64,000 nucleotides of DNA from Escherichia coli (GTDB lineage Bacteria; Pseudomonadota; Gammaproteobacteria; Enterobacterales; Enterobacteriaceae): assembly GCF_011045215.1 (NCBI RefSeq), contig NZ_CP049201.1; one strand, written 5' to 3'. Of the stretch, positions 878-62,800 are shown in pieces. A program made the position numbers and the translations under genes. How positions within the stretch are numbered: position 1 is the first letter of the stretch; the number at the start of each line of letters is the position of its first letter. Under the pieces are notes generated by a model. It saw nothing but the letters and a program-made list of their open reading frames with translations. It was not told the DNA's origin and made no database searches.

Positions 878-4424
<3,547 letters not shown>

Positions 4425-11925: not shown

Positions 11926-12096
11926 TACTGACCTCCGGTTGCTGAAAATGCGGCAACACAGTAAGACGAAAAGTCAGTGAAGAGAACGTTCCCATTACAT
12001 CTGTGTGATAAAGATCACATAGGGTATGTCTTCATGGCGAAAAAGTATAAAATTCTTAATAAACAGCCGGTTATAGCTCCGAAAGCGAATTATTTA

Positions 12097-12715: not shown

Positions 12716-13220
12716 AACGCGTCCCCTTCTTAGCGGTTGAACTAACGGACACCTTTCGGGATGGAAAAAACTTACTGACCTGGACTTGCCCTCTCGTTTG
12801 TTAGCTTAACTATAAGCCACTCTTTGCAGGTTTTCATCGCATTATTACGAAAAATTACAATTAGGAAGGAAGCGGGACAGGACTCACTTTTTCATACTAG
12901 CACTAACCCGCAGCAGGTAAAAGCAGTTTGCTCGAACTATTCATAACATTTCAGGATTATCGCCAGATGAAATTGGTGACACTAATACCAGGATTGCTCT
13001 GAATATGACGTAATAACCGAGGAATGAATAAAGAATTACCGCAAATAATTAAGAATAGCCTCTAAATGATTATGGATTATTAAATCTATTAGCGCTACTT
13101 AATATAAATTAACTAACAATCAGTATTTTTTATGAATTTTATCCGTGGTTAATACTGGTTTTCGTATGAGATCCTGAGTTGGTGGTTCAATTACTCCTTA
13201 ATGTTCGTAGGTTATGCATA

Positions 13221-13242
13221 AAAAAGGCCGCTTACGCGGCCT
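13221..13242 (-). terminator. rho-independent terminator downstream of acrB
   Basis: Hairpin aaggccgcttacgcggcctt; on the minus strand it is followed by a T-run. Confidence 0.65.
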
Positions 13243-13260
13243 TAGTGATTACACGTTGTA

Positions 13261-16413
<3,153 letters not shown>

Positions 16414-40484: not shown

Positions 40485-41030
40485 CGTAGGCCGGATAAGG
40501 CGTTCACGCCGCATCCGGCATCCGAGCACCATTGCCTGATGCGACGCTTACGCGTCTTATCAGGCCTACAAACCTGTGCCTGAACCGTAGGCCGGAGAAG
40601 GCGTTCACGCCGCATCCGGCATCCGAGCACCATTGCCTGATGCGACGCTTACGCGTCTTATCAGGCCTACAAACCTGTGCCTGAACCGTAGGCCGGAGAA
40701 GGCGTTCACGCCGCATCCGGCATCCGAGCACCATTGCCTGATGCGACGCTTACGCGTCTTATCAGGCCTACAAACCTGTGCCTGAACCGTAGGCCGGAGA
40801 AGGCGTTCACGCCGCATCCGGCATCCGAGCACCATTGCCTGATGCGACGCTTACGCGTCTTATCAGGCCTACAAACCTGTGCCTGAACCGTAGGCCGGAG
40901 AAGGCGTTCACGCCGCATCCGGCATCCGAGCACCATTGCCTGATGCGACGCTTACGCGTCTTATCAGGCCTACAAACCTGTGCCTGAACCGTAGGCCGGA
41001 GAAGGCGTTCACACCGCATCCGGCAGTCAT
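40485..41030. repeat. tandem array of REP-containing units (BIME-like), five full 101-bp copies plus a degenerate sixth
   Basis: Unit cgtaggccggagaaggcgttcacgccgcatccggcatccgagcaccattgcctgatgcgacgcttacgcgtcttatcaggcctacaaacctgtgcctgaac recurs starting at 40485, 40586, 40687, 40788, 40889 (period exactly 101 bp); generates the identical 76-aa track ORFs on the minus strand. Confidence 0.9.
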
Positions 41031-44782: not shown

Positions 44783-46075
44783 ATGATGAACACGGAAGGT
44801 AATAACGGTAACAAACCTCTCGGTCTATGGAACGTCGTTTCCATCGGCATTGGGGCAATGGTGGGGGCGGGGATCTTCGCGCTGCTGGGGCAGGCTGCGT
44901 TGCTAATGGAAGCCTCGACATGGGTCGCCTTTGCTTTTGGCGGTATTGTGGCGATGTTTTCCGGTTATGCCTATGCGCGTCTGGGGGCGAGCTATCCCAG
45001 CAATGGCGGCATTATCGACTTCTTTCGTCGCGGATTAGGCAACGGCGTCTTTTCGCTGGCGCTCTCGTTACTGTACCTGTTGACGCTGGCGGTGAGCATC
45101 GCCATGGTCGCCCGTGCTTTTGGCGCTTATGCCGTGCAGTTTTTGCATGAAGGCAGCCAGGAGGAGCACCTTATTTTGCTCTACGCGTTGGGGATCATTG
45201 CGGTGATGACGCTTTTCAACTCCTTAAGCAACCATGCGGTAGGGCGGCTGGAAGTGATCCTCGTCGGCATTAAAATGATGATCCTGTTATTGCTGATTAT
45301 TGCCGGTGTCTGGTCGCTGCAACCGGCGCATATTTCCGTCTCTGCGCCCCCCAGCTCCGGTGCGTTCTTCTCCTGTATCGGGATAACCTTCCTTGCCTAT
45401 GCGGGCTTTGGCATGATGGCGAACGCGGCGGATAAAGTGAAAGATCCGCAGGTCATTATGCCACGGGCGTTTCTGGTGGCGATTGGCGTTACCACGTTGC
45501 TTTATATCTCGCTGGCGCTGGTTTTGCTTAGCGATGTATCGGCATTAGAGTTAGAAAAATATGCCGATACCGCCGTAGCGCAGGCAGCTTCTCCGCTGCT
45601 CGGGCATGTGGGTTATGTGATCGTCGTCATCGGCGCTTTACTGGCGACGGCTTCAGCCATCAACGCGAACCTGTTCGCCGTGTTTAACATCATGGACAAC
45701 ATGGGCAGCGAACGCGAACTGCCGAAGCTAATGAATAAATCCCTGTGGCGGCAGAGTACCTGGGGCAACATCATTGTCGTGGTGTTGATTATGCTGATGA
45801 CGGCGGCACTAAATTTAGGCTCACTCGCCAGCGTTGCCAGCGCCACCTTTTTGATTTGCTATCTGGCGGTGTTTGTGGTGGCGATCCGCCTGCGTCATGA
45901 TATTCACGCCTCGTTGCCGATTCTTATCGTAGGTACGTTGGTGATGTTGTTGGTGATCGTTGGCTTTATCTACAGCCTGTGGTCCCAGGGCAGCCGTGCG
46001 TTGATATGGATTATTGGTGCAATCTTACTCAGCCTTATTGTGGCAATGGTCATGAAGCGTAATAAAACCGTATAA
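44783..46075 (+). CDS. ybaT: APC-superfamily amino-acid transporter YbaT
   Basis: 430-aa polytopic membrane ORF 3 nt downstream of glsA (probable operon). Confidence 0.9.
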   Translation: MMNTEGNNGNKPLGLWNVVSIGIGAMVGAGIFALLGQAALLMEASTWVAFAFGGIVAMFSGYAYARLGASYPSNGGIIDFFRRGLGNGVFSLALSLLYLLTLAVSIAMVARAFGAYAVQFLHEGSQEEHLILLYALGIIAVMTLFNSLSNHAVGRLEVILVGIKMMILLLLIIAGVWSLQPAHISVSAPPSSGAFFSCIGITFLAYAGFGMMANAADKVKDPQVIMPRAFLVAIGVTTLLYISLALVLLSDVSALELEKYADTAVAQAASPLLGHVGYVIVVIGALLATASAINANLFAVFNIMDNMGSERELPKLMNKSLWRQSTWGNIIVVVLIMLMTAALNLGSLASVASATFLICYLAVFVVAIRLRHDIHASLPILIVGTLVMLLVIVGFIYSLWSQGSRALIWIIGAILLSLIVAMVMKRNKTV

Positions 46076-46412
46076 CACCTCTCTGTGCGCAGTACTTTCT
46101 GTACTGCGCCTTTGTCTTTAATTCAAATTACCTTTCTTATTCCTTTAATAAATAAGTCACAAAAAAATGATATATACGCGATAAATCTGTGATGCTAATC
46201 ACTTATTACCGTGGATTATTCTTAATGTGTATGATGGTAATCTAAAAGTCGTAGTGTATTCTAAATAAATAACGTATAAGCTTTTTAGCTGCATTTCTTT
46301 GCCCATATCAATGATCGACAAAAGAGATGCACAAGTTATTACCCTTCTTAATAAAATGAGACTGGTTATAAAAACCAGTTAAAATAATGACCTGGAAGGA
46401 AGTGACTTACCT

Positions 46413-47768
46413 ATGGCGCGATTCCAGTTTAAAAACCGTAAAAATAATGGACTTATTTTTTTAATAAGTTTTATGGTGATGGGAGAAGCTGCAATTGCTG
46501 CACCGCTGCCACAATGGGCGAATGCCCCAGCGGTAACGCCAGTTGCCCGATTATCTTTACAGGAAAGTATATTACGCGCCTTTGCGCGAAATCCCGACGT
46601 CACTCAACAGGCGGCGCAGATAGGCATTGGCGAAGCGCAAATTGATGAAGCCAAAAGTGCCTGGTATCCGCACGTTGGATTAACCGGCAACGCGGGGCCG
46701 TCCCGACAAACGGACTCCAGCGGCAGGCTTGATAACAACGTTTCGTATGGCATAACCCTGACACAACTGGTGTATGACTTTGGTAAAACTAACAACGATA
46801 TCAATCTGCAAACTGCCGCCCGTGACAGCTACCGCTTTAAATTGATGGCTACCTTAACCGATGTTGCAGAGAAAACGGCGACTGCCTATATGGAAGTCAG
46901 TCGTTATCAGGCTTTGTGCGATGCGGCTCAACGCAATATTCACTCGCTGGAAAACGTCTACAACATGGCGGCATTGCGCGCTAACGCTGGCCTGAACTCA
47001 TCGTCGGATGAATTACAGGCCCAGACGCGTATTGCCGGAATGCGCTCAACGCTGGAGCAATATCAGGCGCAGATGGCGAGCGCCAAAGCGCAACTGGCGG
47101 TGCTCACTGGCGTACAGCCAGAGGCGATAGCCGCGCCACCTGCTGAATTAGCCGAGCAGCCGGTATCGCTGAAGAATATTGATTACCAGTCCATCCCGCT
47201 GGTGCTGGCGGCAGAAAACTTACGCCAGTCAGCACAGTACGGCGTGGAAAAAACGAAAGCGCAATACTGGCCAACGCTCAGTATTCAGGGGGGTAAAACG
47301 CGCTACCAGACCAGCGACCGCTCGTATTGGGATGATCAGCTACAACTGAACGTTAACGCGCCGCTGTATCAAGGCGGCGCGGTTTCTGCCCAGGTGCAAC
47401 AGGCCGAAGGGCAACAAAAAATCTCTGCCTCGCAGGTCGAACAGGCAAAACTGGATGTGCTGCAACGAGCGTCTGTGGCATATGCGAACTGGACCGGCGC
47501 ACGGGGTCGCGAAGAAGCCGGTTTAGCGCAATCCGAAAGTGCGCACAAAACGCGAGATGTGTACCAAAATGAATATAAATTGGGTAAACGCAGTCTGAAT
47601 GATCTATTAACCGTCGAGCAAGATGTCTTTCAGGCGCAATCGGCTGAAATAAATGCCAATTATGATGGCTGGGTCGCCGCCGTAAATTATGCCGCTGCGG
47701 TGAATAACCTTATTCCTTTAGCGGGAATTAAACAGGGCTTATACAACGACTTACCCGACTTGAAATAA
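46413..47768 (+). CDS. TolC-family outer-membrane channel, probable type I secretion outer membrane protein
   Basis: 451-aa ORF with N-terminal signal-like hydrophobic segment (LIFLISFMVMGEAAIAAP); TolC-like composition and helical repeat pattern (LSLQESILRAFARNPDV, ...YDFGKT..., coiled-coil Q/A-rich segments); sits immediately upstream of the giant repeat protein gene; preceded by an AT-rich region. Confidence 0.7.
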   Translation: MARFQFKNRKNNGLIFLISFMVMGEAAIAAPLPQWANAPAVTPVARLSLQESILRAFARNPDVTQQAAQIGIGEAQIDEAKSAWYPHVGLTGNAGPSRQTDSSGRLDNNVSYGITLTQLVYDFGKTNNDINLQTAARDSYRFKLMATLTDVAEKTATAYMEVSRYQALCDAAQRNIHSLENVYNMAALRANAGLNSSSDELQAQTRIAGMRSTLEQYQAQMASAKAQLAVLTGVQPEAIAAPPAELAEQPVSLKNIDYQSIPLVLAAENLRQSAQYGVEKTKAQYWPTLSIQGGKTRYQTSDRSYWDDQLQLNVNAPLYQGGAVSAQVQQAEGQQKISASQVEQAKLDVLQRASVAYANWTGARGREEAGLAQSESAHKTRDVYQNEYKLGKRSLNDLLTVEQDVFQAQSAEINANYDGWVAAVNYAAAVNNLIPLAGIKQGLYNDLPDLK

Positions 47769-47870
47769 TCCTGCCATTATTAATAGTGGGCCGTTGTTAA
47801 GTGATTACCTTTGTCTTATTTAGATAAATGGACTCGCTAAGGATGTGCGCCATTTATCAGGAATGCTATT

Positions 47871-50800
47871 ATGAGCCTGATTATTGATGTTATTTCGCGT
47901 AAAACATCCGTCAAACAAACGCTGATTAATCCTGGCGACGTCACGGTTGTTATTTATGAGCCTTCCGTGGTGCAGGTTCATGCTCAGGCCTCTGCCGTTG
48001 CGCGTTACGTCCGTGAAGGAAATGACCTGCTGATCTATTTGCAGGACGGCACGGTGATCCGCTGCAACGGTTATTTCCTGCAAGCGGCGAATACAGCTGA
48101 ACAATCGGAACTGGTGTTTGCCGATGGTCAACAGCTAACCCATGTCACCTTCGCCGATACTGCTGCGGGTGGATTAGCCCCCGTAGAACTGACTGCCCAG
48201 ACCACTGCGATTGAAAGCATTGCGCCATTTCTTGATACCGTTGCTCAGACCAGCGCCTTCCCGTGGGGTTGGCTGGCGGGGGCGGCGGTAGGTGGCGGTG
48301 CGCTTGGTGCACTGCTGGCAAGCGGTGGCGATGGCGACTCGAAAACAGAAGTGATTAATAACCCTACGCCACCTGCTGAGCCTGGCAACGCCACACCATC
48401 ATTTTTAGTTACCGATAATCAGGGCGATCAGCGCGGCATTCTCGCCACCAATGACATCACCGATGACACCACGCCAACCTTTAGCGGCAGCGGGCAGGCG
48501 GGGGCGACTATTCAGATTAAAGACAGTAACGGCAATACTATTGCCAGTACTCAGGTAGACAACAACGGTCACTGGAGTGTCTCGTTACCCACGCAAAGTG
48601 CAGGTGAACATACCTGGTCAGTGGTGCAAATTGTCGGCAGTACCATCACTGACGCCGGTTCGATAACGTTAACCATCGACAATAGTCAGGCCAGCGTGCA
48701 GGTTGCCACCACCGCAGGCGATAACATTATTAACGCCAGCGAACAGGCCGCCGGGTTTACGCTTTCTGGCACCAGTAGCCATCTGGCACAGGGAACAGAA
48801 CTCACCGTCACACTTAACGGCAAAACCTACACCACCAGCGTAGGCGCTAACGGTGCCTGGAGCGTGCAGGTGCCGACCGCCGATGCACAGGCGTTAGGCG
48901 AAGGGAATCAGGCGGTACTGGTCAGTGGGAAAGACACCACAGGCAATACGGTCACCGGCGCGCAGCTGCTAACGGTCGATACCCAACCGCCAACGCTTGC
49001 CATCAACACCATCGCTCAGGACAACATCATCAGTGCTGCGGAACATAACGTCGCGCTGGTACTGAGCGGCACGTCGAATGCAGAAGCGGGGCAAACCGTA
49101 ACACTGACCGTCAACGGGAAAAGCCATACAGCAACCGTCGGTAGCGACGGAACCTGGCAAGTGACGCTGCCTGCCACGGAAGTCCAGGCACTGGCGGAGG
49201 GTAATTACGCTGTCAATGCCAGTGTCAGCGATCGGGCAGGGAACACCACCAGCCACAGCGCGAATCTCACGGTAGACACCTCAGCACCCGTGGTCAGTGT
49301 TAATACCGTGGCGGGCGACGATATTCTTAATAATGCCGAGCAGGCCGTCGCGCAGATCATCTCCGGACAAGTTAGCGGTGCTTCTCCTGGCGATACGGTA
49401 ACGGTGAAATTGGGCACTCATGTCCTGACGGGCATCGTGCTGGCAGATGGCAGCTGGAATGTGGCGTTGGACCCGGCGGTAACCCGCACGCTGGATCGCG
49501 GAGCCAATACGATTTTCGTCACCGTGACAGATGCTGCAGGAAATACTGGCGCGGCGTCTCGAGCAATCACGCTGGTCGGTGTTTCTCCGTTGATCACCAT
49601 TAACACCGTCTCCGGCGATGACATTATCAGTGGCGCAGAAAAAGGTGCGCCACTGACCCTTACCGGTAGCACTCAACAGGCTGAGACAGGACAAACCGTC
49701 ACAGTAACCCTGGCTGGACAGAGTTTTACCACTACCGTGCAGGCCGATGGCTCCTGGAGTCTGACGGTACCTGCCGCCGCGATGGGAAATCTGCCTGACG
49801 GCGCGGTGGCGATTACCGCTTCTGTGACGGATCTCAGCGGCAATACCGGCAACACCTCCCGCACCATTACCGTCGACAGCCAGGCCCCGGCCTTAAGCAT
49901 TGATCCACTGACCGCTGATAACATCATTAACGCCGCCGAAAGCGGGCAGGATCTGCCCATCACCGGCACCACCGACGCTCAGCCGGGGCAGACGGTGACC
50001 GTTACGTTAAATGGGCAGACGTATCAGGGCGTCGTGCAGCCAGACGGCACCTGGAGCGTGACTGTGCCCGCCGCCAACGTGGGCGCACTGGCTGACGGCA
50101 ACGCTACGGTCACCGCCAACGTGAACGATGTCGCCGGTAATCCGAGCAGCGTCTCACGCGTGGCGCTGGTCGATGCCACGCCGCCGGTGGTGACCATTAA
50201 TCCGGTGGCGACCGATAACGTCATTAACACGCCGGAACATACCCAGGCGCAAATCATCAGCGGTACGGTTACTGGCGCTCAGGCGGGCGATATCGTCACC
50301 GTGACGCTGAATAATGTGAATTACACCACGGTGGTGGATGGTTCCGGCAACTGGAGCCTGGGCGTTCCGGCCTCGGTGGTCAGTGGGCTGGCGGACGGCA
50401 GTTATCCTGTCAGCGTCTCGGTAACCGACAAAGCCGGAAACACGGGCAGCCAGTCACTGACTGTCACGGTCAATACCGCAGCGCCCCTTATCGGCATTAA
50501 CAGCATTGCGGGCGATGATGTGATTAATGCCAGCGAAAAAGGGGCCGATCTCCAGATTACCGGCACCAGCGATCAGCCAGTGGGTACCGCCATCACCGTG
50601 ACGCTCAACGGGCAAAACTATGCGGCGACGACCGATGCCTCCGGCAACTGGAGCGTCAACGTTCCGGCATCGGCGGTAACCGCACTGGGCCAGGCCAACT
50701 ACACGGTAACGGCGGCGGTAACCAGCGATATCGGCAACAGCACCACCGCCAGCCATAATGTGCTGGTCGACAGCGCGCTGCCCGGCGTGACCATTAACCC

Positions 50801-53800
50801 GGTGGCAACCGATGATATTATTAACGCCGCCGAAGCGGGCGTGGCGCAAACCATCAGCGGGCAGGTGACTGGAACCGCCGTTGGCGACGCGGTAACCGTG
50901 ACGCTGGGCGGTAATACCTACACCACCACCGTGCAGGCCGGCTTAAGCTGGAGCGTGGACGTTCCGGCGGACGCTATTCAGGCGCTGGGTAATGGCGATT
51001 TAACGGTTAATGCCTCGGTCACCAATCAAAACGGCAACACCGGCAGCGGCACGCGGGATATCACCATCGACGCCAATCTGCCCGGCCTGCGGGTCGATAC
51101 GGTGGCGGGCGATGATGTGGTCAATATCATCGAGCACGGGCAGGCGCTGGTGATTACCGGCAGCAGTTCGGGGCTGGCAGAAGGCACGCCGCTTACCGTT
51201 ACGATTAATAATGTGGAATACACCACTGCGGTGCAGGCCGATGGTAGCTGGAGCGTGGGCGTCACGGCGGCGCAGGTTAGCGCCTGGCCTGCGGGGACGG
51301 TTAATATTGCCGTGTCCGGGGAAAGTAGCGCCGGAAATCCGATAAGCATTACGCATCCGGTAACGGTGGATCTCACTCCGGCGGCTATCACCATCAACAC
51401 TATCGCCACGGACGATGTGATTAACGCTGCAGAAAAAGGGGCTAATTTAACTCTTTCCGGCACCACCACTAACGTAGAAGCAGGGCAAACCGTCACTGTC
51501 ACCTTTGGCGGTAAAAATTACACCGCCAGCGTGGCGGGCGATGGTAGCTGGACTGCCACCGTTCCCGCCGCCGATCTGGCGGCATTACCGGAAGGCAGCG
51601 CCTCCGCTCAGGCCAGCGTCAGCAATATCAACGGCAATAGCGCCTCGGCGGTGCATAACTACAGCGTCGACAGCAGCGCGCCAACCATCATTATCAATAC
51701 CGTCGCCAGCGACAATATCGTCAACGCCAGCGAAGCCGATGCGGGTGTGACGGTGAGCGGCAGCACCACCGCTGAAGCGGGGCAGATTGTTACGGTAACG
51801 CTCAATAGCCCGACCGTGCAGACGTATCAGGCAACGGTACAGGCGGACGGCAGCTGGAGCATCAATATTCCGGCGGCAGATCTTGAGGCATTGACCGATG
51901 GCAGCCACACCCTGACCGCGACGGTCAATGACAAAGCGGGCAACCCGGCGAGCACCACGCATAATCTGGCGGTGGATCTCACCGTCCCGGTACTCACCAT
52001 CAATACCATTGCGGGCGATGACATTATTAACGCCGCCGAGCACGGACAGGCGCTGGTGATTTCTGGTTCCAGCACAGGCGGAGAGGCGGGAGATGTCGTC
52101 ACCGTCACGCTAAACAGTAAAACCTACACCACGACGCTGGATGCCTCCGGCAACTGGAGCGTCGGTGTTCCGGCGGCGGATGTCACCGCGCTGGGTAGCG
52201 GCCCGCAAACCATCACTGCCAGCATTACCGATGCGGCAGGTAATAGCGACAGCGAAACGCACACGGTCACCGTTAACCTTACCGCGCCGACCATTGGCAT
52301 TAACACCATCGCCACCGATGACGTGATTAATGCCACCGAAAAAGGCGCAGATCTGCAAATCTCCGGCACCAGTAATCAGCCAGCGGGCACCACGATTACG
52401 CTGACGTTTAACGGGCAAAATTACACCGCCACGACGGACGCCGCAGGTAACTGGAGCACCACGGTGCCAGCCTCTGCCGTCGGTGCGCTGGGCGAAGCCA
52501 GCTACACGGTGACGGCGAACGTCACCGACAGCGCAGGCAACAGCAATTCCGCCAGCCATAACGTGCAGGTCAATACCGCGCAGCCTGGCGTCACCATTAA
52601 TCCGGTTGCGACTGACGATATTATTAACGCCGCCGAATCGGGCAATGCGCAAACCATCAGCGGTCAGGTAACGGGCGCGGCGGCGGGCGATACCGTCACC
52701 GTGACGCTTGGCGGGAAAACCTACACGGCTACCGTGCAGGGGAATCTAAGCTGGAGCGTGGATGTTCCGGCTGCGGATATTCAGGCCATCGGTAATGGCG
52801 ACCTGACTGTTAACGCCTCAGTGACCAACGGCGTTGGCAATACCGGCAGCGGTTCGCGAGATATTACTATCGACGCCAACCTGCCTGGCCTGCGCGTCGA
52901 TACCGTGGCGGGCGATGATGTGGTTAACAGCATCGAACACGGTCAGGCACTGGTGATAACTGGTAGCAGCAGCGGGCTGGCGGTGGGCGCGGCGCTGACG
53001 GTGGTGATCAATAACGTCACCTATGGCGCGACAGTATTAGCCGATGGCACATGGAGCGTTGGTGTTCCGGCGGTAGACGTGAGTAACTGGCCTGCGGGTA
53101 CGGTGAATATCACGGTAAGTGGCACTAACACAGCCGGAACAACATCCACCATTACCCATCCGGTCACCGTCGATCTGGCGGCGGTGGTGATTTCCATTAA
53201 CACCATCTCCGGCGATGATGTGATTAACGCCGCCGAAAAAGGGGCAGATTTAACCCTTTCCGGCAGCACCTCCGGCGTAGAGCCAGGGCAAACGGTCACC
53301 GTCACCTTTGGCGGCAAAACCTACACCGCCACCGTAGCAGGCGATGGTAGCTGGACAACCACCGTACCTGCCGCCGATCTCAGCGTGTTACGCGACGGCG
53401 ACGCCACGGTACAGGCCAGCGTCAGCACTATTAACGGCAACACGGCTTCGGCAACCCACGCTTACAGCGTTGATGCCACTGCCCCGACGCTTGCCATTAA
53501 TACCATCGCCACCGACGATATTCTGAACGCCGCCGAGGCGGGCAATCCGCTAACCATCAGCGGCAGTAGCACCGCTGAAGCGGGGCAGACGGTAACTGTC
53601 ACGCTTAATGGCGTGACTTACACCGGCACCGTCCTGGCGGACGGGAGCTGGAGCGTCAGCGTGCCGACGGCGGATCTCAGCAATCTGACCGCCAGCCAGT
53701 ACACCGTCAGCGCCTCGGTAAACGATAAAGCGGGTAACCCGGCATCCACCACTCACGGGCTGGCGGTGGATCTCACCGTGCCGGTGCTGACCATCAACAC

Positions 53801-56800
53801 CGTCTCCGGCGATGACATTATTAACGCCGCCGAACACGGACAGGCGCTGGTGATCTCCGGCTCCAGTACTGGCGGCGAAGCGGGCGATGTCATCACCGTC
53901 ACGTTAAACAGTAAAACCTACACCACCACGCTGGATGCCTCCGGTAACTGGAGCGTCGGCGTTCCGGCGGCAGATGTCACCGCACTTGGCAGCGGCCCGC
54001 AAACCATCACGGCCACGATTACGGATATCGCGGGTAATAGCGATGATGCTAGCCGCACGGTCACCGTAAATCTCACCGCGCCAACCATTGGCATCAACAC
54101 CATCGCCACCGATGACGTGATTAACGCCACGGAAAAAGGCGCGGATCTGCAAATTACCGGCACCAGTAATCAGCCCGCGGGCACCACCATTACGGTGACG
54201 TTGAACGGGCAAAATTACACCGCTACTACCGATAGCAACGGCAACTGGAGCGCCACGGTGCCAGCGTCAGCGGTTAGCACGCTGGGTGAAGCTAACTACA
54301 CGGTAACCGCGAACGTCACCGACAGCGCAGGTAACAGCAATTCCGCCAGTCATAACGTGCTGGTCAACAGCGCCTTGCCTGCCGTCACCATTAACGCGGT
54401 GGCGACCGACGATATTATTAACGCTGCCGAAGCGGGCAATGCGCAAACCATCAGCGGGCAGGTGACGGGTGCCGCGGCGGGCGACACGGTTACCGTTACG
54501 CTGGGCGGCAACACCTACACCGCTACCGTACAGGCTAATTTAAGCTGGAGCGTTAGCGTGCCAGCGGCGGATATTCAGGCGCTGGGCAACGGCGACCTGA
54601 CAATTAATGCCTCGGTCACTAACGTCGTCGGCAACACCGGCAGCGGCTCGCGCGATATCACGATCGACGCCAATCTGCCTGGCTTACGGGTCGATACCGT
54701 GGCGGGCGATGATGTGATTAACAGCATTGAGCACAATCAGGCGCTGGTGATCACCGGTAGCAGCACCGGGCTGACGGCGGGAACGGCGTTAACGGTCGAG
54801 ATTAACAACGTTACTTATGGCGCGACGGTGTTAGCCGACGGCACATGGAACCTCGGTGTTCCGGCGGCAGACGTCAGCAACTGGCCTGCGGGTACGGTGG
54901 ATATCACGGTAAGCGGCACCAACAGCGCCGGAACAACCTCCACCATTACCCATCCGGTTACCGTCGATCTGTCGGCAGTCGCCATCACCATTAACACTCT
55001 CTCTGGTGATGATGTGATCAACGCCGTCGAAAAAGGCGAAACGCTGGTCGTAAGCGGCAGCACCAGCGGTGTCGAAGCCGGGCAAACGGTGACCGTCACC
55101 TTTGGCGGCAAAAATTACACCACCACTGTGGAAGCTAACGGTAGCTGGACGGTGAACGTACCGCCTGCCGATCTCGCTGCGCTACCGGACGGTGCGGGCA
55201 ACGTGCAGGCGAGTGTCAGCAACATCAACGGCAATAACGCCCAGGCGGATCGTACGTACAGCGTCGATGCCACCGCGCCACTTGTGACCATCAACACCAT
55301 CGCCAGCGACGATATCCTTAACGTGAGCGAAGCTGGCGCGGGGATCACCATCAGCGGCACTACCACGGCGCAGGCCGGGCAGACGCTGACCGTCACGCTC
55401 AATAATAACACGTACCAGACCACGGTTCAGGCGGATGGCACCTGGAGCGTGAATGTTCCGGCAGCGGATTTAAGCGGATTAACCGCCAGCAGTTACACCG
55501 TGACCGCCACGGTGAGCGACAAAGCGGGTAACCCGGCAAGCGCCGACCACGCGCTGGCGGTGGACGTTACCGCACCGGATCTCACCATTAATACCGTCGC
55601 GGGCGATGACATTATTAATGCCATCGAACACGGTCAGGCGCTGGTCGTCAGCGGAACCAGCACGGGCGCGGCGGCGGGTGATGTGGTCACGGTTAACCTG
55701 AACGGTAAAAACTACACCACCACGCTGGATGCCTCCGGTAACTGGAGCGTGGGCATTCCTGCGGTGGATGTGACGGCGCTGGCAACCGGCAACCAGACCA
55801 TTACCGCCAGCCTGAGCGATCGCGCGGGCAACAGCGACAGCACGACTCACAATGTGACCGTTGATCTCAGCGGCCCGACGCTGACCATCAACACCGTCTC
55901 CGGCGATGACATTATTAATAATGCGGAGAAAACCCAGGACTTGATCATCAGCGGCGGCTCCAGCGGTCTGGCGGCAGGCACTACGGTCACCGTGATGTTG
56001 AACGGCCTGGCGTACAGCGCTACTACCGACGGCTCCGGCAACTGGAGCGTTACCGTGCCTGCTTCTTCGGTTGGCGCGCTCGGCGAGGCGGTGTATCAGA
56101 TTAGCGCCAGCGCCACCGACAGCGCGGGCAACAGTGGCAGCACCACCCATACGGTGAATGTCGAATCGCTCCTGCCTGGGGTAATCATTAATACCGTGGC
56201 GGGCGATGACATTATCAACGCCGCTGAAATCGCTGTGGCGCAGACCATCAGCGGTCAGGTCACGGGGACGGCGGTTGCGGGTAATACGGTGATTGTCACC
56301 ATTGGCGGCAATCAATATAACGCCACCGTGCAGTCAGATTTAAGCTGGAGCGTCAGCGTACCTGCGAACGTTTTGCAGGCGCTGGGCAACGGTGAACTGA
56401 CCATCAGCGCCTCGGTGACTAATTCCGCAAATAATACCGGCACCACAACGCACGACATCGTGATAGATGCCAACCTGCCAGGTCTGCGCGTCGATACCGT
56501 GGCAGGCGATGATGTGATTAACAGCATCGAGCACACTCAGGCGTTGGTGATCACCGGTAGCAGTAGCGGACTGGCGGCGGGCGCGGCGTTGACGGTGGTT
56601 ATCAATAGCGTCACCTACGGCGCAACGGTTTTAGCGGATGGTAGCTGGAGCGTTGGTGTTCCGGCGGCAGATGTCACAAACTGGCCTGCGGGGACGGTCA
56701 ATATTGCCGTCTCTGGCACCAACACCGCCGGAACGACAACCAGTATTACCCATCCGGTGACCGTCGATCTCGCAGCCGTGGCGATCACCATCAACACCCT

Positions 56801-59800
56801 TTCCACTGACGATGTGATTAACGCCGCCGAAAAAGGCAGCGATTTGCAGCTCTCCGGCACCACCTCCGATGTGGAAGCGGGGCAAACCATCACCGTTATC
56901 TTCGGCGGCAAAAGCTACACCACCACGGTTGCCGCGGATAATACCTGGGGGCTGACGATCCCTGCCGCCGATGTTGCAACCTTGCCAGACGGCGCAGCAA
57001 ACGTCCAGGCCAGCGTCAGCAATGTCGCAGGGAACAGCGCCCAGGCAACGCATGCTTACAGCGTTGATGCCACTGCGCCCTCCGTTACCATCAACACCAT
57101 CGCCACGGACGATATTCTTAACGCCGCCGAAGCGGGATCGGCGCTGACCATCAGCGGCACCAGCACGGCGGAAGCCGGGCAGACGGTGACCGTAACGCTA
57201 AACGGCGTTAATTACAGCGGCAATGTGCAGGCAGACGGGAGCTGGAGCGTCAGCGTCCCGACCGGCGATTTAGCTAACCTCACTGCCAGCCCCTATACGG
57301 TGAGCGCAGCGGTCAGCGACAAAGCCGGAAATCTGGCTTCGGCGACGCATAACCTGACGGTGGACCTTGCCGCTCCGGTCGTCACCATTAACACGGTGGC
57401 GGGCGATGACATCATCAACGCCACGGAACACGGACAGGCGCAGATTATCAGCGGCTCGGCAACGGGCGCGACGACGGGTAACACGGTTTCCGTGACGATT
57501 GGCACGACCACCTACGCCACTGTGCTGGACGCCAACGGCAACTGGAGCATCGGCGTACCTGCCAGCGTGATTTCCGCACTGGCGCAGGGTGATGTAACCA
57601 TTACTGCCACGGTTACCGACTCCGCAGGCAACAGTGGCACGGCTTCGCACATTGTCAGCGTGGCGCTCGGCGCGCCGATACTCAGCATTAACACCATTGC
57701 CGTCGACGACATCCTCAACGCCACGGAGAAAGGTGCAGATCTGGCGATTACCGGCACCAGCAACCAGCCCGCGGGTACGCAGATTACCATTACGCTCAAC
57801 GGGCAAAATTACACCACCACTGCCGATGCATCCGGGAACTGGAGCGTAACCGTTCCGGCGTCACGGGTCAGCGCCCTCGGTGAAGCCACTTATACGGTGA
57901 CTGCCGCCGCCACTGACACCGATGGCAACAGCGGTTCCGCCAGCCATAATGTGCAGGTCAATACCGCGCTGCCGGGCGTCACCATTAACGTGGTGGCGAG
58001 CGACGATATTATTAACGCCGCCGAAGCGGGCGCGGGCCAGACCATCAGTGGGCAGGTGACGGGTGCTGCGGCAGGCGATACCGTTACCATAACGCTCGGC
58101 GGAGCGACTTACACCGCTACGGTGCAGGCGAATTTAAGCTGGAGCGTCGATGTTCCGGCCTCCGCGCTACAGGCGTTGGGCAACGGTGAGCTGACCATTT
58201 CGGCCTCGGTAACGAACAGCGTGGGCAATACAGGTAACGGCACGCGCGAAATCACCATCGACGCGAATCTCCCTGGTCTGCGGGTCGACACCGTGGCGGG
58301 CGATGACGTGGTCAACATTATCGAGCACAATCAGGCGCTGGTGATTACCGGCAGCAGCTCCGATCTGGCAGCGGGCAGCAACGTCACGCTGACCATAAAC
58401 GGGCAAACGTATGTTGCGGCGGTGCTGGCGGATGGCTCATGGAGCGTCGGCGTTCCGGCGGCAGATGTCAGCGCCTGGCCTGCGGGGAAGGTCACAATTA
58501 CGGCGAGCGGCAACACCACCGCCGGAAACCCGGTGAGCGTTACGCATCCGGTGACGGTCGATCTCACTGCGGTGGCGGTCAGCATCAACGCCATTACTGC
58601 CGATGACGTGATTAACGCTGCCGAAAAAGGCGCGGCGTTAACGCTCTCTGGCAGCACTACTGGTGTGGAGGCCGGACAAACGGTCACCGTCACCTTTGGC
58701 GGCAAAACTTACAGCGCCACGGTGGCTGCGAATGGTTCCTGGAGCACCTCGGTTCCGGCGGCAGATATGGCGGCCCTGCGTGATGGCGATGCCAGCGCAC
58801 AGGCCAGCGTCAGCAATGTTAACGGCAACAGCGCCACCACTACCCACGCATACAGCGTCGATGCCAGCGCGCCAACGGTGACCATTAACACCATTGCGGG
58901 CGACGACATTCTTAACGCCGCCGAAGCCGGAGCGGCGCTAACCATCACCGGCAGCAGCACGGCGGAAGTGGGGCAGACGGTGACCGTCACGCTCAATGGC
59001 GCAAACTATACCGGCACTGTACAGACGGACGGCAGCTGGAGCGTCAGTGTGCCGCCAGCCGACTTAAGCGCTCTGACCGCCAGCAACTACACCGTTAGCG
59101 CGGCGGTGAGCGACAAAGCCGGAAACCCGGCCTCGGTTAACCACAACCTGACGGTGGATACTTCCGTTCCGGTCGTCACCATCAACACGGTGGCAGGCGA
59201 TGATGTGATCAACGCGACGGAACACGCCCAGGCGCAGATCATCAGCGGCTCCGCCACGGGAGCGGTAACCGGTAGCACCGTGACGGTGACTATCGGCACA
59301 AATACCTTTACCACGGTGCTGGATGCCAGCGGCAACTGGAGCGTCGGCGTCCCGGCAAGCGTCGTCTCGGCACTGGCGAACGGCACGGTGACCATTAACG
59401 CCAGCGTCACTGATGCCGGAGGAAACAGCGGCAGCACCACCCATCAGGTGACGGTCAATACCGGGCTGCCGACCATTACCTTTAACGCTATCAGCGGCGA
59501 TAACGTCCTGAACGCCGATGAAAAAGGCCAGCCGTTGACCATCAGCGGTAGCAGTACGGGGCTGGCGACGGGCGCGCAGGTTACCGTCTCGCTCAACGGT
59601 CACAACTACAGTGCTACCACCGACGCAGCAGGCAACTGGACCTTAACCGTGCCGGTGAGCGATCTGGCGGCTCTAGGCCAGGCCAACTATACCGTCAGCG
59701 CCAGCGCCACCAGTGCGGCGGGCAACACCGCCAGCAGCCAGGCGAATTTACTGGTCGACAGCGGCCTGCCGGGCGTCACCATCAACACCGTAGCGGGCGA

Positions 59801-62800
59801 CGATATTATCAACGCCGCCGAAGCGGGGGCCGATCAAACCATCAGCGGGGTGGTGACTCGCGCCGCCGCAGGCGATACGGTCACCGTGACGCTGGGCGGC
59901 AACACTTACACAGCGCAGGTTCAGGCCGATTTAAGCTGGAGCGTCACCGTTCCGGCAGCCGATTTCCAGGCGCTGGGCAATGGTGATTTGACCATTACCG
60001 CCTCGGTCACCAACGCGAATGGCAACACTGGCAGCGGCACGCGGGATATCACCATTGACGCCAACCTGCCTGGGCTGCGGGTGGATACCGTGGCGGGCGA
60101 TGATATCGTCAACAGTATCGAGCACGGGCAGGCGCTGGTGATCACCGGCGGCAGTAGCGGCCTGAATGCAGGTGCTGTGCTGACGGTTACCATCAACAGT
60201 GTGGCGTATTCCGCCACGGTACAGGCGGACGGGAGCTGGAGCGTCGGCATTTCGGCGGCAAGCGTCAGCGCCTGGCCTGCGGGGCCGTTAACCGTTGATG
60301 TGGCAGGACAGAGCAGCGCCGGAAATCCGGTCAGCGTCAGCCATCCGTTCACCGTCGATTTAACTTCGGTGGCTATCAGCATCAACACCGTTGCCAGCGA
60401 CGACGTAATTAACGCCGCCGAGAAAGGCACCGACCTGACCCTTTCCGGCAGCACCAGCGGGATTGAAAGTGGGCAAACCGTTACCGTCACCTTTGGCGGT
60501 AAAACCTACACCGCAAGCGTCGCCGCCAATGGAAGCTGGAGCGTAACGGTTCCGGCGGCGGATCTGGCAGCTCTGCCAGACGGCGCGGCGAACGTGCAGG
60601 CCAGCGTCAGCAGCGCGAGCGGCAATAGCGCCTCAGCGACTCATGCGTACAGCGTTGACGCCAGCGCGCCGACGCTCACCATTAACACCATCGCCAGCGA
60701 TGACATCCTTAACGCGGCAGAGGCGGGAAATCCGCTGACCATCAGCGGCACCAGCACCGCCGAAACCGGGCAGACGGTGACCGTCACCCTTAACGGCGCA
60801 ACCTACAGCGGTAATGTGCAGGCAGATGGTAGCTGGAGCGTCAGCGTTCCCACTTCAGCCCTGGGCGCGCTCACCGCAAGCAATTATACCGTCAGCGCCA
60901 CCGTCAACGACAAAGCGGGTAACCCCGGCAGCGCCAGCCATAATCTGGTGGTAGACACCACCGCGCCGGTTCTTACCATAAATACCGTGGCGGGCGATGA
61001 CATCATCAACGATGCCGAACATGCGCAGGCGCTGGTGATCTCCGGCACCAGTAGCGGCGGGGAAGCGGGCGATGTGGTGAGCGTTGTGCTCAACGGCAAA
61101 ACCTACACCACCACCCTGGATGCCTCCGGCAACTGGAGCGTCGGCGTTCCGGCGGCGGATGTTACGGCACTCGGTAGCGGTGCGCAGACCATCACCGCCA
61201 GCGTCAGCGATCGGGCAGGCAACAGCGACGACGCCAGCCGCACCGTCACCGTTAGCCTCAGCGCGCCAGTGATTAGCATCAACACCATCGCGGGCGATGA
61301 TGTGATCAACGCGACGGAAAAAGGATCCGATCTGGCGCTTTCCGGCACCAGCGATCAGCCTGCGGGTACGGCGATCACCGTCACGCTGAACGGACAAAAC
61401 TACAGCGCCACTACCGACGCCTCCGGCAACTGGAGCGTTACTGTGCCCGCCTCGGCGGTCAGTGCGCTGGGCGAAGCGACCTACAGCGTCACGGCGAGCG
61501 TCACCAATGCCCAGGGCAACAGCAGCACCGCCAGCCATAACGTGCAGATCAATACCGCGCTGCCGGGCGTCACCCTTAATCCGGTGGCGACGGACGATAT
61601 TATCAATGCCGCCGAAGCGGGCAGCGCACAAACCATCAGCGGCCAGGTAACCGGGGCGGCGGCGGGCAGTACCGTCACCGTTGAACTGGGCGGTAAAACT
61701 TACACCGCCATCGTCCAGGCTGATTTAAGCTGGAACGTGAGCGTACCAGCCGCCGACTGGCAGGCGCTGGGTAACGGTGAGTTAACCGTTAACGCCTCGG
61801 TCACCAACGCCGTTGGCAACACCGGCAGCGGCACGCGCGATATCACCATCGATGCCAGTCTGCCTGGCCTGCGGGTGGATACCGTCGCGGGTGATGATGT
61901 GGTCAATATCATCGAACACAGTCAGGCGCAGGTGATCACCGGCAGCAGCTCTGGCTTTGCGGCGGGCACGGCGCTGACGGTGGTGGTAAATAACCAAACT
62001 TACGCCGCCACGGTGCTGGCGAACGGCAGCTGGAGCGTCGGCGTTCCGGCGGCGGATGTCAGCAACTGGCCTGTGGGAACGCTGAATATTAGCGTTAGCG
62101 GCGCAAACAGTGCCGGAACGCAAACCAGCATTACCCATCCGCTGACTGTTGATCTCACGACCGTCGCCGTCAGCATGAACAGCATCACCAGCGATGATGT
62201 GATTAACGCCGCCGAAAAAGGCGCGGCGCTAACGCTCTCCGGCAGCACGTCTGGCGTCGAAGCGGGGCAAACCGTCACCGTCACCTTTGGCGGCAAAACC
62301 TACACCTCCACGGTGGCGGCTAACGGTAGCTGGAGCACCACCGTTCCGGTTGCGGATATGGCGGCGCTGCGTGACGGCGATGCCAGCGCCCAGGTGCGGG
62401 TGACTAACGTCAACGGCAACAGCGCCACGGCAACGCACGAATACAGCGTCGATAGCGCCGCGCCAACGGTCACCATCAACACCATTGCCAGCGATAACAT
62501 CATCAACGCCAGCGAAGCGGCGGCGGGCGTAACGGTGTCCGGCACCAGCACGGCGGAAACCGGGCAGACGCTCACCGTCACGCTTAACGGCACTAACTAC
62601 CAGACCACGGTGCAGGCAGACGGCAGCTGGAGTTTAACGCTGCCCGCCAGCGACTTAACCGCACTGGCTAATAACGGCTACACCCTGACCGCCACGGTCA
62701 GCGATCTGGCGGGTAACCCTGGCAGCGCCAGCAAAGGCGTGACCGTCGATACCACTGCGCCGGTGATCAGTTTTAACACCGTGGCGGGCGATGATGTGAT

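Follow-up and report, generated by a model that had tools for sequence, protein, structure and literature searches.

The 337 bases that separate ybaT from a TolC-family gene in a 64-kb stretch of Escherichia coli DNA (the window) are the promoter and 5' leader of the adhesin-secretion operon of O-island 28 (OI-28), a feature that is real and largely already known. Taken as a whole, this interval is very probably the cis-regulatory region of an old Escherichia operon, tolC28-siiEA-ABC-HlyD, and at the same time the left end of a 25.8-kb deletion. Its exact limits (46076–46412) are given by the ybaT stop codon at 46073–46075 and the ATG of the TolC-family gene at 46413. OI-28 comprises genes for a TolC-family channel, the giant adhesin siiEA, an ABC transporter and an HlyD-type adaptor, and these are followed by cueR. 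EHEC O157:H7 reportedly requires the OI-28 system for early adherence in the gut; since the region controls a giant-adhesin secretion system with this function, the positions of its promoter, activator sites and leader matter. The interval is flanked by the following genes:

44783–46075, + strand: ybaT (APC-family permease), upstream core gene (ORF; ybaT annotation in a matching genome)
46413–47768, + strand: tolC28/Z0608 homologue, TolC-family type I secretion outer-membrane channel (TIGR01844; PGAP)
47871–64000, + strand: 5' part of siiEA, giant BapA-related Ca2+-repeat adhesin (NF047714), running past the window end

The TolC-family gene scores 416 bits against TIGR01844 (cut-off 225) and its product is 99.3% identical to the O157 protein. 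The part of siiEA present in the window scores 506 bits against NF047714 (cut-off 425) and specifies Ca_tandemer repeats; in strain PapM-32-1, siiEA is 20,778 bp long. Of 5426 complete E. coli genomes, 958 (17.7%) carry the leader, at 95–100% identity and always on the chromosome. All experimental evidence on the OI-28 promoter comes from O157:H7 and is carried over to this strain via a leader identity of 98–99% with E. coli O157:H7 EDL933 (98.7% over 697 bp, the leader being free of indels).

The first-pass annotation had described some 340 bp of AT-rich DNA contrasting with the GC-rich adhesin gene. This description holds: the sequence strings that it quoted are present, and the GC content of the interval is 0.323 (32.3%), as compared with 0.608 for siiEA, 0.535 for ybaT, 0.516 for the TolC-like gene and 0.543 for the whole window. 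The part that is absent from K-12 (46104–46412) has a GC content of 0.307. Composition is not uniform across the region: when the 28 intergenic regions of the window that reach 50 bp are compared (mean 0.442, sd 0.063), the interval has the lowest GC content. An equally low value is seen in just 0.2% of the 337-bp segments of the window, and the minimum (0.294) belongs to the segment starting at 46137, inside the AT-rich region. A single other stretch of the window, the acrB-tomB/hha intergenic region (12780–13340), is comparably AT-rich. Because intergenic DNA of E. coli is generally AT-rich, the excess over the other intergenic regions amounts to about 1.9 sd; the AT-richness of the interval is extreme in this window, yet not outlandish. 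In Enterobacter, Lelliottia, Budvicia and Rosenbergiella, homologous loci that likewise begin with the TolC-like gene also have AT-rich upstream regions (GC 0.30–0.38).

The interval begins with a transcription terminator that was detected by a terminator scan:

46087–46119, + strand: intrinsic terminator of ybaT (9-bp stem GCGCAGTAC/GTACTGCGC, 5-nt loop, tail CTTTGTCTTT)

The stem starts 12 nt past the ybaT stop codon and includes six G-C pairs among its nine. RNA folding yielded −16.3 kcal/mol (z −7.6), a stability reached by 0 of 200 shuffled sequences, and every stem substitution across seven sequences keeps the pairing. The tail CUUUGUCUUU has U at seven of ten positions, the tract being interrupted. 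Based on its structure and conservation, this strong intrinsic terminator would stop transcription of glsA-ybaT.

Initiation of the operon can be placed further downstream:

46234–46262, + strand: core promoter (weak −35-like ATGGTA at 46234–46239, 17-bp spacer, −10 TATTCT at 46257–46262)
46269, + strand: main operon transcription start (EDL933 position 579751; Cappable-seq, PMC10469882 supplementary files 6 and 8)
46287, + strand: minor operon transcription start (EDL933 579769; Cappable-seq, PMC10469882)
46135, − strand: minor antisense transcription start (EDL933 579617, one condition; PMC10469882 supplementary table)

The main start in EDL933 is located 144 nt upstream of the ATG (579895) and maps to 46269 via the EDL933 sequence. 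It was recorded by Cappable-seq in six of eight conditions, including all four in stationary phase, and the values listed beside it are 0–4 for exponential and 9–65 for stationary phase (PMC10469882). The −10 hexamer TATTCT ends 7 nt ahead of this start (−12 to −7) and was also chosen by BPROM in PMC12758282, where a lacZ fusion of the tolC28 upstream region was found to be active in EDL933. Two other Escherichia species share the core promoter (46231–46268) at 95% identity, as against about 72–77% identity at third codon positions. The island promoter predicted for this interval is thus borne out by a mapped start, a properly positioned −10 box and an active fusion. ECs0540 and ECs0541 go up as cells enter stationary phase. 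Mutation of rpoS lowers Z0608 expression 55-fold (PMC2907692), a dependence that could be partly indirect. Transferred from EDL933 to the present strain, these data suggest that the weak −35/TATTCT promoter would fire at 46269 mainly in stationary phase and that Z0608 would depend strongly on RpoS. A simple promoter scan remained at chance level (two found vs 2.3 expected). The scan promoters TGCACA-18-TAAAAT (46328–46357) and ATGAGA-18-TAAAAT (46356–46385) were discarded as they lie past the mapped start, in the part that is transcribed as UTR, and the latter was rejected as a MerR-like spacer palindrome for the same position inside the UTR.

Alternatively, the island might lack an internal promoter and owe its transcription to read-through from glsA-ybaT, an acid-induced and RpoS-dependent operon, with the AT-rich spacer being inert. 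This model would account for the stationary-phase induction and RpoS dependence common to glsA-ybaT and Z0608, and the interrupted U-tract of the ybaT terminator would be compatible with it. However, it conflicts with the capped 5' end at 46269 and its correctly placed −10 box, the capacity of the isolated upstream region to drive lacZ (PMC12758282), the strength and conservation of the terminator hairpin upstream, and the cross-species conservation of the core promoter. Read-through without an internal promoter, which would have contradicted the first-pass annotation, is hence already largely refuted, and we give it hardly any credence.

Two sites upstream of the core promoter are candidates for regulatory input into OI-28 transcription:

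46119–46132, + strand: RstA box TAATTCAAATTACC (published, PMC12758282; −294 to −281 from the ATG, −150 to −137 from the start)
46188–46203, + strand: candidate CRP site TGTGA-tgctaa-TCACT (sequence match; centre at −73.5)

The box TAATTCAAATTACC in the window is identical to the RstA box of EDL933, whose removal abolished the RstA gel shift; RstA ChIP-qPCR and EMSA were likewise reported (PMC12758282). Box, −10 and start-site sequences are identical to those of EDL933, and RstA-dependent activation would be expected in this strain, too. Conservation of the box is poor in E1V33, E. whittamii and strain SCPM; this and its location far upstream of the start site were counted against our overall explanation.

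The candidate CRP site fits TGTGA-N6-TCACA at nine of ten core positions and has no second of its kind in the region, sites of equal quality being expected by chance about 1.9 times (1.89) per 64 kb or about 0.01 times per 337 bp. Its half-sites are invariant in all seven Escherichia leaders, with a variable 6-nt spacer between them, and the site is missing from homologous loci in other genera. Class I CRP sites are usually centred at −61.5, −72.5, −82.5 or −92.5; the centre at −73.5 from the mapped start is one base off this spacing. We thus envisage an AT-rich upstream region equipped with an RstA box, for which binding was shown in O157:H7, and a CRP-like site to which CRP may bind. CRP input would suit induction in stationary phase upon glucose exhaustion.

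At an AT content of 68–70% across roughly 340 bp, the region would, by composition, be a plausible target of H-NS, a protein whose occupancy follows AT content closely. H-NS-silenced AT-rich promoters are known for giant-adhesin type I secretion system (T1SS) loci such as Salmonella SPI-4 (siiA-F). It is tempting to speculate that the region is silenced by H-NS during growth and that RstA and sigma-S relieve this silencing. The AT-richness may also be devoid of any H-NS meaning, and simply reflect an activator-dependent promoter followed by an AU-rich UTR, under the control of RstA, sigma-S and perhaps CRP alone. We consider this a realistic possibility, albeit not one that we would favour. 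Promoter and UTR, that is, conserved functional sequence, make up much of the AT-rich tract, and intergenic DNA is AT-rich in any case. Moreover, the H-NS-like motif CGATAAAT at 46179–46186 (the nucleation consensus being tCGATAAATT-like) occurs at chance frequency, with three matches in the window vs 2.06 expected, and the literature searched yielded no H-NS ChIP, hns-mutant or hns transcriptome data on Z0608/OI-28. Indirect arguments for a role of H-NS are the lowest GC content of the 64-kb window over about 340–400 bp, the nearly absent expression in exponential phase, and the AT-rich leaders shared by distant homologous loci although the leader sequences are dissimilar: blastn and nhmmer detected no similarity between the OI-28 leader and upstream regions of related T1SS loci outside Escherichia.

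Transcripts starting at 46269 carry a long untranslated leader with several predicted structures:

46269–46412, + strand: 5' UTR, 144 nt, AU-rich, predicted to be structured (MFE −36.2 kcal/mol, z −3.1)
46290–46331, + strand: predicted stem-loop A (11-bp stem 46290–46300/46321–46331, 20-nt loop)
46333–46408, + strand: predicted helix B (46333–46340/46401–46408; anti-SD CCUUCU at 46343–46348 with SD GGAAGG at 46394–46399)
46360–46380, + strand: hairpin C (GACTGGTT-ATAAA-AACCAGTT; −9.4 kcal/mol, z −5.9)
46394–46402, + strand: Shine-Dalgarno (SD) region GGAAGGAAG (direct reading; invariant in seven sequences)

UTR bases 46333–46412 are 91–94% identical in E1V33 and E. whittamii, as compared with a third-codon identity of 0.71–0.77. 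The arms of stem-loop A are nearly unchanged across species (two substitutions, both leading to G.U), whereas identity in the loop is just 19–33%. All 14 pairs of helix B are invariant in seven sequences, which precludes a covariation test on this helix. The anti-SD:SD helix is present in both the MFE and the consensus fold with a pairing probability of about 0.5 that varies with the flanks included. In hairpin C, the four substitutions found in other species all create G.U pairs on the + strand, and one terminal pair is lost. Strain ECNB21-M121 harbours an IS1 element inserted at hairpin C. Over the seven-sequence alignment, 99.3% of the cells are paired, and all nine variable pairs change to G.U on one side, with no double compensatory substitution in the UTR helices of these sequences. 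The shuffle control of the structure counts was uninformative because almost no columns vary. An RNA thermometer was rejected as a function of the leader, given that the predicted probability of the SD being unpaired drops from 0.41 at 20°C to 0.24 at 42°C. Conservation well above the neutral rate, together with two predicted hairpins and an anti-SD:SD helix, suggests that the 144-nt UTR may have a post-transcriptional role.

Conservation of the UTR would also be expected if the leader encoded a product of its own, be it a small RNA or an upstream ORF whose leader peptide controls the operon, and short ORFs are indeed present (e.g., 23 codons from ATG 46312 to TAA 46383). Such a product is nevertheless highly improbable. 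There was no match to Rfam families at E ≤ 1 in 45500–48200, and the + strand starts reported are exclusively the two mRNA starts at 46269 and 46287. As for a peptide, ATG 46312 lacks an SD, ATG 46357 is replaced by ACG in O157, and the ORF goes out of frame in E1V33 and E. whittamii owing to a 1-nt indel; with neither frame nor start codon being conserved, the upstream ORF was dismissed.

The interval also contains one end of the difference between this strain and K-12, whose ends were located by aligning the K-12 junction to the intact locus with BLAST:

46103/46104: left breakpoint of the 25.8-kb deletion (K-12-type ybaT-cueR arrangement), inside the ybaT terminator

Genomes without the island align to positions 45900–46103 of the window alone (query bases 1–204). 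The first-pass annotation had correctly anticipated the K-12 boundary in or near the interval, and it had the polarity of the difference wrong: it took the region for a horizontally acquired one at the boundary of an insertion relative to K-12, and neither this polarity nor a recent acquisition is supported. Directly upstream of cueR, K-12 retains about 98 bp, frameshifted, of the 3' end of the HlyD-family gene; from this remnant, K-12 is recognized as a 25.8-kb deletion derivative, and it lacks the region because of this deletion and not because of an insertion in the present strain. On the ybaT side, the K-12 terminator has lost its 3' arm (fold −6.9 kcal/mol, z +1.0). The identical junction scar is present in 4458 of 5424 complete E. 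coli genomes (about 82%). This sharing of a single deletion scar with K-12 implies that the so-called island is ancestral and the K-12 arrangement derived. The island occupies the same ybaT site in Escherichia whittamii and Escherichia sp. E1V33, where it has diverged to the same extent as its flanks, third-codon identity being 0.77 for the island locus (tolC28) vs 0.71–0.76 for glsA and ybaT. The remnant and the presence of an equally diverged locus at the same site in two other Escherichia indicate that the locus is old and that most E. coli lost it. Also in favour of a deletion, sequence divergence is 5–8% beside both breakpoints vs 1–2% farther out on the left flank.

The opposite polarity, in which the AT-rich tract is the edge of a horizontally acquired island that this lineage gained by insertion between ybaT and cueR and K-12 represents the empty site, is very unlikely. 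It would be in line with the higher GC content of the island (0.591 overall, against 0.523 for the rest of the window), its presence in fewer than one in five complete E. coli genomes, the location of homologues in other genera away from ybaT, and the word 'acquisition' used in PMC12758282. The K-12 site is not empty, however, and no clean empty site was seen, as K-12 and the 4458 genomes hold both the HlyD-gene remnant and the truncated ybaT terminator. Neither an integrase nor a tRNA gene is present at the locus, the breakpoints share no repeat beyond GTA, and the site is filled in E. whittamii and E1V33. With deletion as the preferred explanation, acquisition of the locus before the split of E. 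coli, E. whittamii and E1V33 is possible. The literature searched contained no prior report of the K-12 remnant or of deletion polarity.

The dimorphism of island and scar at ybaT-cueR may thus be an old polymorphism that goes back to one 25.8-kb deletion. The same event may have abolished the ybaT terminator and given cueR a different promoter: transcription of cueR begins 160 nt upstream in EDL933, within the HlyD-type gene, but 19 nt upstream in K-12. If true, the deletion rewired expression of the copper regulator in most E. coli. The joint proposal that the UTR acts post-transcriptionally, controlling how well the T1SS channel mRNA is translated or how stable it is, and that cueR was rewired by the deletion is tentative, and we rate it as rather unlikely. 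The AT-rich promoter region and the K-12 boundary are already covered by published O157:H7 work. Our analysis adds a base-level map in which sequence conservation is combined with the published start site, a possible input from CRP, and a conserved, probably structured 5' UTR. It also corrects the polarity, making the 'O-island' older, with one deletion scar common to K-12 and some 82% of the sequenced E. coli; this alters the framing of gain-vs-loss arguments on the virulence-associated OI-28.

Several known systems resemble OI-28 in part. RfaH-controlled operons of the hlyCABD type likewise have a long 5' leader ahead of a very long T1SS operon; in contrast to these ops/JUMPStart leaders, that of OI-28 lacks the ops element GGCGGTAGNNTG, which was absent from 46076–46412 and 47769–47870 with up to one mismatch allowed. 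Salmonella SPI-4 also combines a T1SS with a giant BapA/SiiE-type adhesin made of Ig repeats and a strongly AT-rich upstream region with GC-richer coding sequence. It differs in that in OI-28 the TolC-like gene comes first and the activators are RstA and RpoS instead of SPI-1-linked regulators; while SPI-4 promoters are silenced by H-NS, OI-28 is a plausible H-NS target by composition. Class I CRP promoters of the lac P1 type provide a third parallel: the half-sites of TGTGA-N6-TCACT are those of the lac CRP site, and in both cases they are found upstream of a promoter with a weak −35, with conservation of the half-sites. The candidate site of OI-28, however, is centred at −73.5 and not at −61.5 or −72.5, and has no counterpart in the homologous loci of other genera.

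The closest known system is OI-28 of O157:H7 itself. The published O157:H7 work (Niu et al., Gut Microbes 2025, PMC12758282) describes the island as acquired, and mentions neither the K-12 remnant nor a CRP-like site nor structure in the UTR. EDL933 and the window have the same locus and, at 98–99% identity, the same sequence; RstA box, −10 box, start-site position and SD are identical. By contrast, the window represents a non-O157 background with the baboon isolate PapM-32-1 as the closest match, and whereas siiEA of O157 is flagged by PGAP as frameshifted with an internal stop, the 20.8-kb siiEA gene of PapM-32-1 is intact.

The spacer between ybaT and the channel gene (46076-46412, 337 bp), which extends from the ybaT stop codon (46073-46075) to an ATG at 46413, has a GC content of 0.323 (0.307 in its K-12-absent part), against 0.543 across the window, 0.535 in ybaT, 0.516 in the channel gene and 0.608 in the adhesin gene. 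The contrast between an AT-rich leader and a GC-rich adhesin gene reported in the first-pass annotation is thus confirmed. The spacer ranks lowest in GC among the 28 intergenic regions of the window (mean 0.442, sd 0.063), and just 0.2% of 337-bp windows are as GC-poor (global minimum 0.294, starting at 46137). Because intergenic DNA is generally AT-rich, its AT excess over other spacers amounts to about 1.9 sd. The sole other stretch nearing this composition is the acrB-tomB/hha intergenic region (12716-13260; 545 bp, GC 0.378).

The gene at 46413 comprises 451 codons and scores 416 bits against TIGR01844 (type I secretion channels, TolC family; cut-off 225). A second gene, which starts at 47871 and continues beyond the window end, hits the model for SiiEA BapA-related adhesins (506 bits, cut-off 425) as well as Ca2+-stabilised tandem repeats. 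A 701-base segment spanning the spacer matches E. coli PapM-32-1 perfectly (100%) and O157:H7 genomes at 98.7% identity. PapM-32-1 has the gene order glsA, ybaT, TolC-family gene, siiEA (20,778 bp), T1SS ABC permease/ATPase, HlyD-family adaptor and cueR, with the adaptor stop overlapping the cueR start (ATGA). The locus is O-island 28 of O157:H7 (Z0608 to Z0635), and 958 of 5426 complete E. coli genomes carry its island-specific leader (46104-46412) at 95-100% identity, in every case on the chromosome.

That the spacer carries the island promoter is supported by published data. The region upstream of tolC28, the channel gene, cloned from EDL933 confers RstA-dependent lacZ activity (Niu et al. 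2025, PMC12758282), RstA is enriched there about 6-fold in ChIP-qPCR, and removal of the box TAATTCAAATTACC (-294 to -280 in that paper) abolished the RstA EMSA shift (PMC12758282). This box corresponds to window 46119-46132, a region just 57-65% identical in other species. The EDL933 Cappable-seq atlas lists for RS02775 (CDS 579895-581250) a start site at 579751, detected in all four stationary-phase conditions as well as in exponential M9 and exponential salt (listed values: exponential 0, 4.1, 0 and 2.4; stationary 64.7, 53.0, 31.3 and 9.2), and a second one at 579769 in stationary M9 alone (PMC10469882, supplementary tables). Since the EDL933 leader aligns to the window with zero indels, 579751 equals window 46269, an A located 7 nt downstream of TATTCT (46257-46262), the same -10 box that BPROM chose (PMC12758282); the -35 element at 17-bp spacing, ATGGTA, is weak. 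Between species, the core promoter (46231-46268, -38 to -1) keeps 95% identity, against a neutral yardstick of about 72-77%. Z0608 is down 55-fold in an rpoS mutant (PMC2907692), and ECs0540 and ECs0541 increase as cultures in glucose minimal medium enter stationary phase (PMC2241611). The ybaT terminator hairpin (-16.3 kcal/mol, z -7.6) is followed by a U-rich tail, and its substitutions keep pairing in all of seven aligned leaders (window, EDL933, three divergent E. coli strains, Escherichia sp. E1V33 and Escherichia whittamii). Given the mapped start, the lacZ activity and this terminator, transcription of the island by read-through from ybaT with no internal promoter is very unlikely.

A conserved element at 46188-46203, TGTGA-tgctaa-TCACT, is a candidate CRP site based on its sequence. 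Its half-sites are invariant in 7/7 leaders while the internal spacer varies (tgctaa vs tttcta), it is one of two sites in the 64 kb at most one mismatch from the CRP consensus, and its centre at -73.5 lies one base away from a class I position. Homologues in other genera lack the site in their upstream regions. Elsewhere, the hha-maa intergenic region contains a perfect CRP palindrome, TGTGATAAAGATCACA (12004-12019), the window's sole exact consensus match.

The spacer tract is the window's most AT-rich DNA, the operon is almost silent in exponential phase in EDL933 (PMC10469882), and in other genera homologous loci have leaders that are unrelated in sequence and likewise AT-rich (GC 0.30-0.38). 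These indirect features would be consistent with silencing by H-NS that RstA and sigma-S lift. The sole H-NS-like motif in the tract is CGATAAAT (46179-46186), a frequency at chance level, and a literature search for H-NS ChIP or hns-mutant results at the OI-28 locus found none. We consider the predicted H-NS binding at the spacer slightly better than an even bet.

The operon 5' UTR (46269-46412) has a predicted minimum free energy of -36.2 kcal/mol (z -3.1). Three elements appear in both the single-sequence and the consensus fold:

46290-46300 with 46321-46331: stem-loop A, predicted fold
46343-46348 (CCUUCU) with 46394-46399 (SD, GGAAGG): long-range anti-SD helix, predicted fold
46360-46380: hairpin C, predicted (-9.4 kcal/mol, z -5.9)

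The arms of stem A are nearly unchanged across species (two substitutions, both to G.U), and its 20-nt loop is just 19-33% identical; the anti-SD helix shows zero variation in the seven sequences. For terminator and UTR together, 42 pairs were counted with 99.3% of cells paired; nine pairs vary, each on one side and every one to G.U, and no compensatory double changes occur in the seven sequences. The changes preserve pairing, so the predicted fold fits these data, and with 91-94% identity across species over 46333-46412 the UTR is under constraint. An RNA thermometer is unsupported because the predicted SD pairing (about 0.5) does not melt as temperature rises, and leader-peptide or small ORFs were rejected as their frame is not conserved across the seven leaders. 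An Rfam scan of the UTR region gave zero matches, and no ops element was found in the leader. Within the ushA coding sequence, 37037-37048 matches the RfaH ops consensus, GGCGGTAGCGTG, exactly; across the window, ops matches with at most one mismatch are commoner than in shuffled sequence (13 vs 4.45), probably owing to codon or composition bias.

The first-pass annotation was mostly right about function and boundary and erred on polarity, having regarded the spacer as a horizontally acquired regulatory region and the island as an insertion relative to K-12. As it had expected, the K-12 boundary falls in the spacer: in the alignment with K-12 (DH1), left homology ends at 46103, where matches of island-less genomes also stop. 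This breakpoint lies within the ybaT terminator hairpin, 28 nt past the stop codon. Right homology restarts in the final ~98 bp of the HlyD-family gene, with ~25.8 kb gone between, so that K-12 keeps a remnant of an island gene. The remnant translates as ...VVAVDIRTGKK, then loses 1 nt in an A-run and continues ...LEYLLKPFNKAQEALRER*, where the uninterrupted gene finishes in ...MVATVDIRTGKKSVLDYLLKPFNKAQEALRER*; PGAP annotates the remnant as a frameshifted partial pseudogene. The breakpoints have only GTA in common, and no integrase gene, tRNA gene or flanking direct repeat is present at the locus. A 211-bp query across the K-12 junction (coverage at least 80%) detected the scar in 4458 of 5424 genomes, with identity of at least 99% in almost all of them, and one deletion event thus explains ~82% of complete genomes. 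Identity between window and K-12 is ~98-99% over the 20-kb left flank, 94-97% in its last 200 bp and 91-98% across remnant and cueR, a drop near both breakpoints that would be expected of an old presence/absence polymorphism. The same alignment has ~300 gap columns in the ybaQ-copA spacer (618 bp, GC 0.594), which is filled by a tandem array (40485-41025) in which a 101-bp GC-rich unit is repeated 5.4 times (99% matches); the unit looks like paired REP elements, as in a BIME-like array.

Recent acquisition is also not borne out, as E. whittamii and E1V33 share the glsA-ybaT-tolC28 order. Their third-codon identity to the window is 0.77 for tolC28 and 0.71-0.76 for glsA/ybaT, so the channel gene has been at this site as long as its neighbours. 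In Enterobacter, Lelliottia, Pseudocitrobacter, Budvicia and Rosenbergiella, homologues (amino-acid identity 55-76%) do not adjoin ybaT. The locus may have been acquired ahead of the split of these Escherichia species.

Beyond the K-12-type deletion, five other lesions were found, one of them seen in ~10 genomes that have neither an intact leader nor the common scar. E. coli SCPM-O-B-8794 (L030 ~3985-4160) carries an independent deletion from ~46276, immediately past the transcription start, to about codon 168 in mid-tolC28, a second, separate route to inactivation of the locus. Strain ECNB21-M121 (L037 3769-4586) has an IS1A insertion in hairpin C (~46371), within the 5' UTR and between promoter and tolC28. 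E. whittamii tolC28 matches in just three pieces in differing reading frames. In O157:H7, siiEA (L002 21972-40697) is called a pseudogene by PGAP (frameshifted, internal stop), and its pieces are handled as two RTX genes, rtxA28 and rtxB28, in the 2025 paper (PMC12758282); PapM-32-1 (L003 22481-43258) has a single intact gene of 20,778 bp.

The right island end adjoins cueR, outside the window:

cueR/right island end: L036 20207-20304; L003 (PapM-32-1) 19143-19146; EDL933 604687

The K-12-type deletion may have rewired cueR. In island-bearing strains its Cappable-seq start lies 160 nt upstream, within the HlyD-family gene, and in K-12 a start is listed 19 nt upstream, within the remnant. As the 3' arm of the terminator is lost in K-12, read-through from ybaT into cueR is conceivable there. 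In PapM-32-1, the K-12-absent genes between cueR and ybbJ (L003 16282-18735) encode a YadA C-terminal-domain protein and three hypotheticals, placing indels on both sides of cueR.

Modest additions made by this analysis are the deletion polarity with its common scar, the conserved candidate CRP site, and a UTR that is conserved and probably structured. The promoter region itself is already described for O157:H7.
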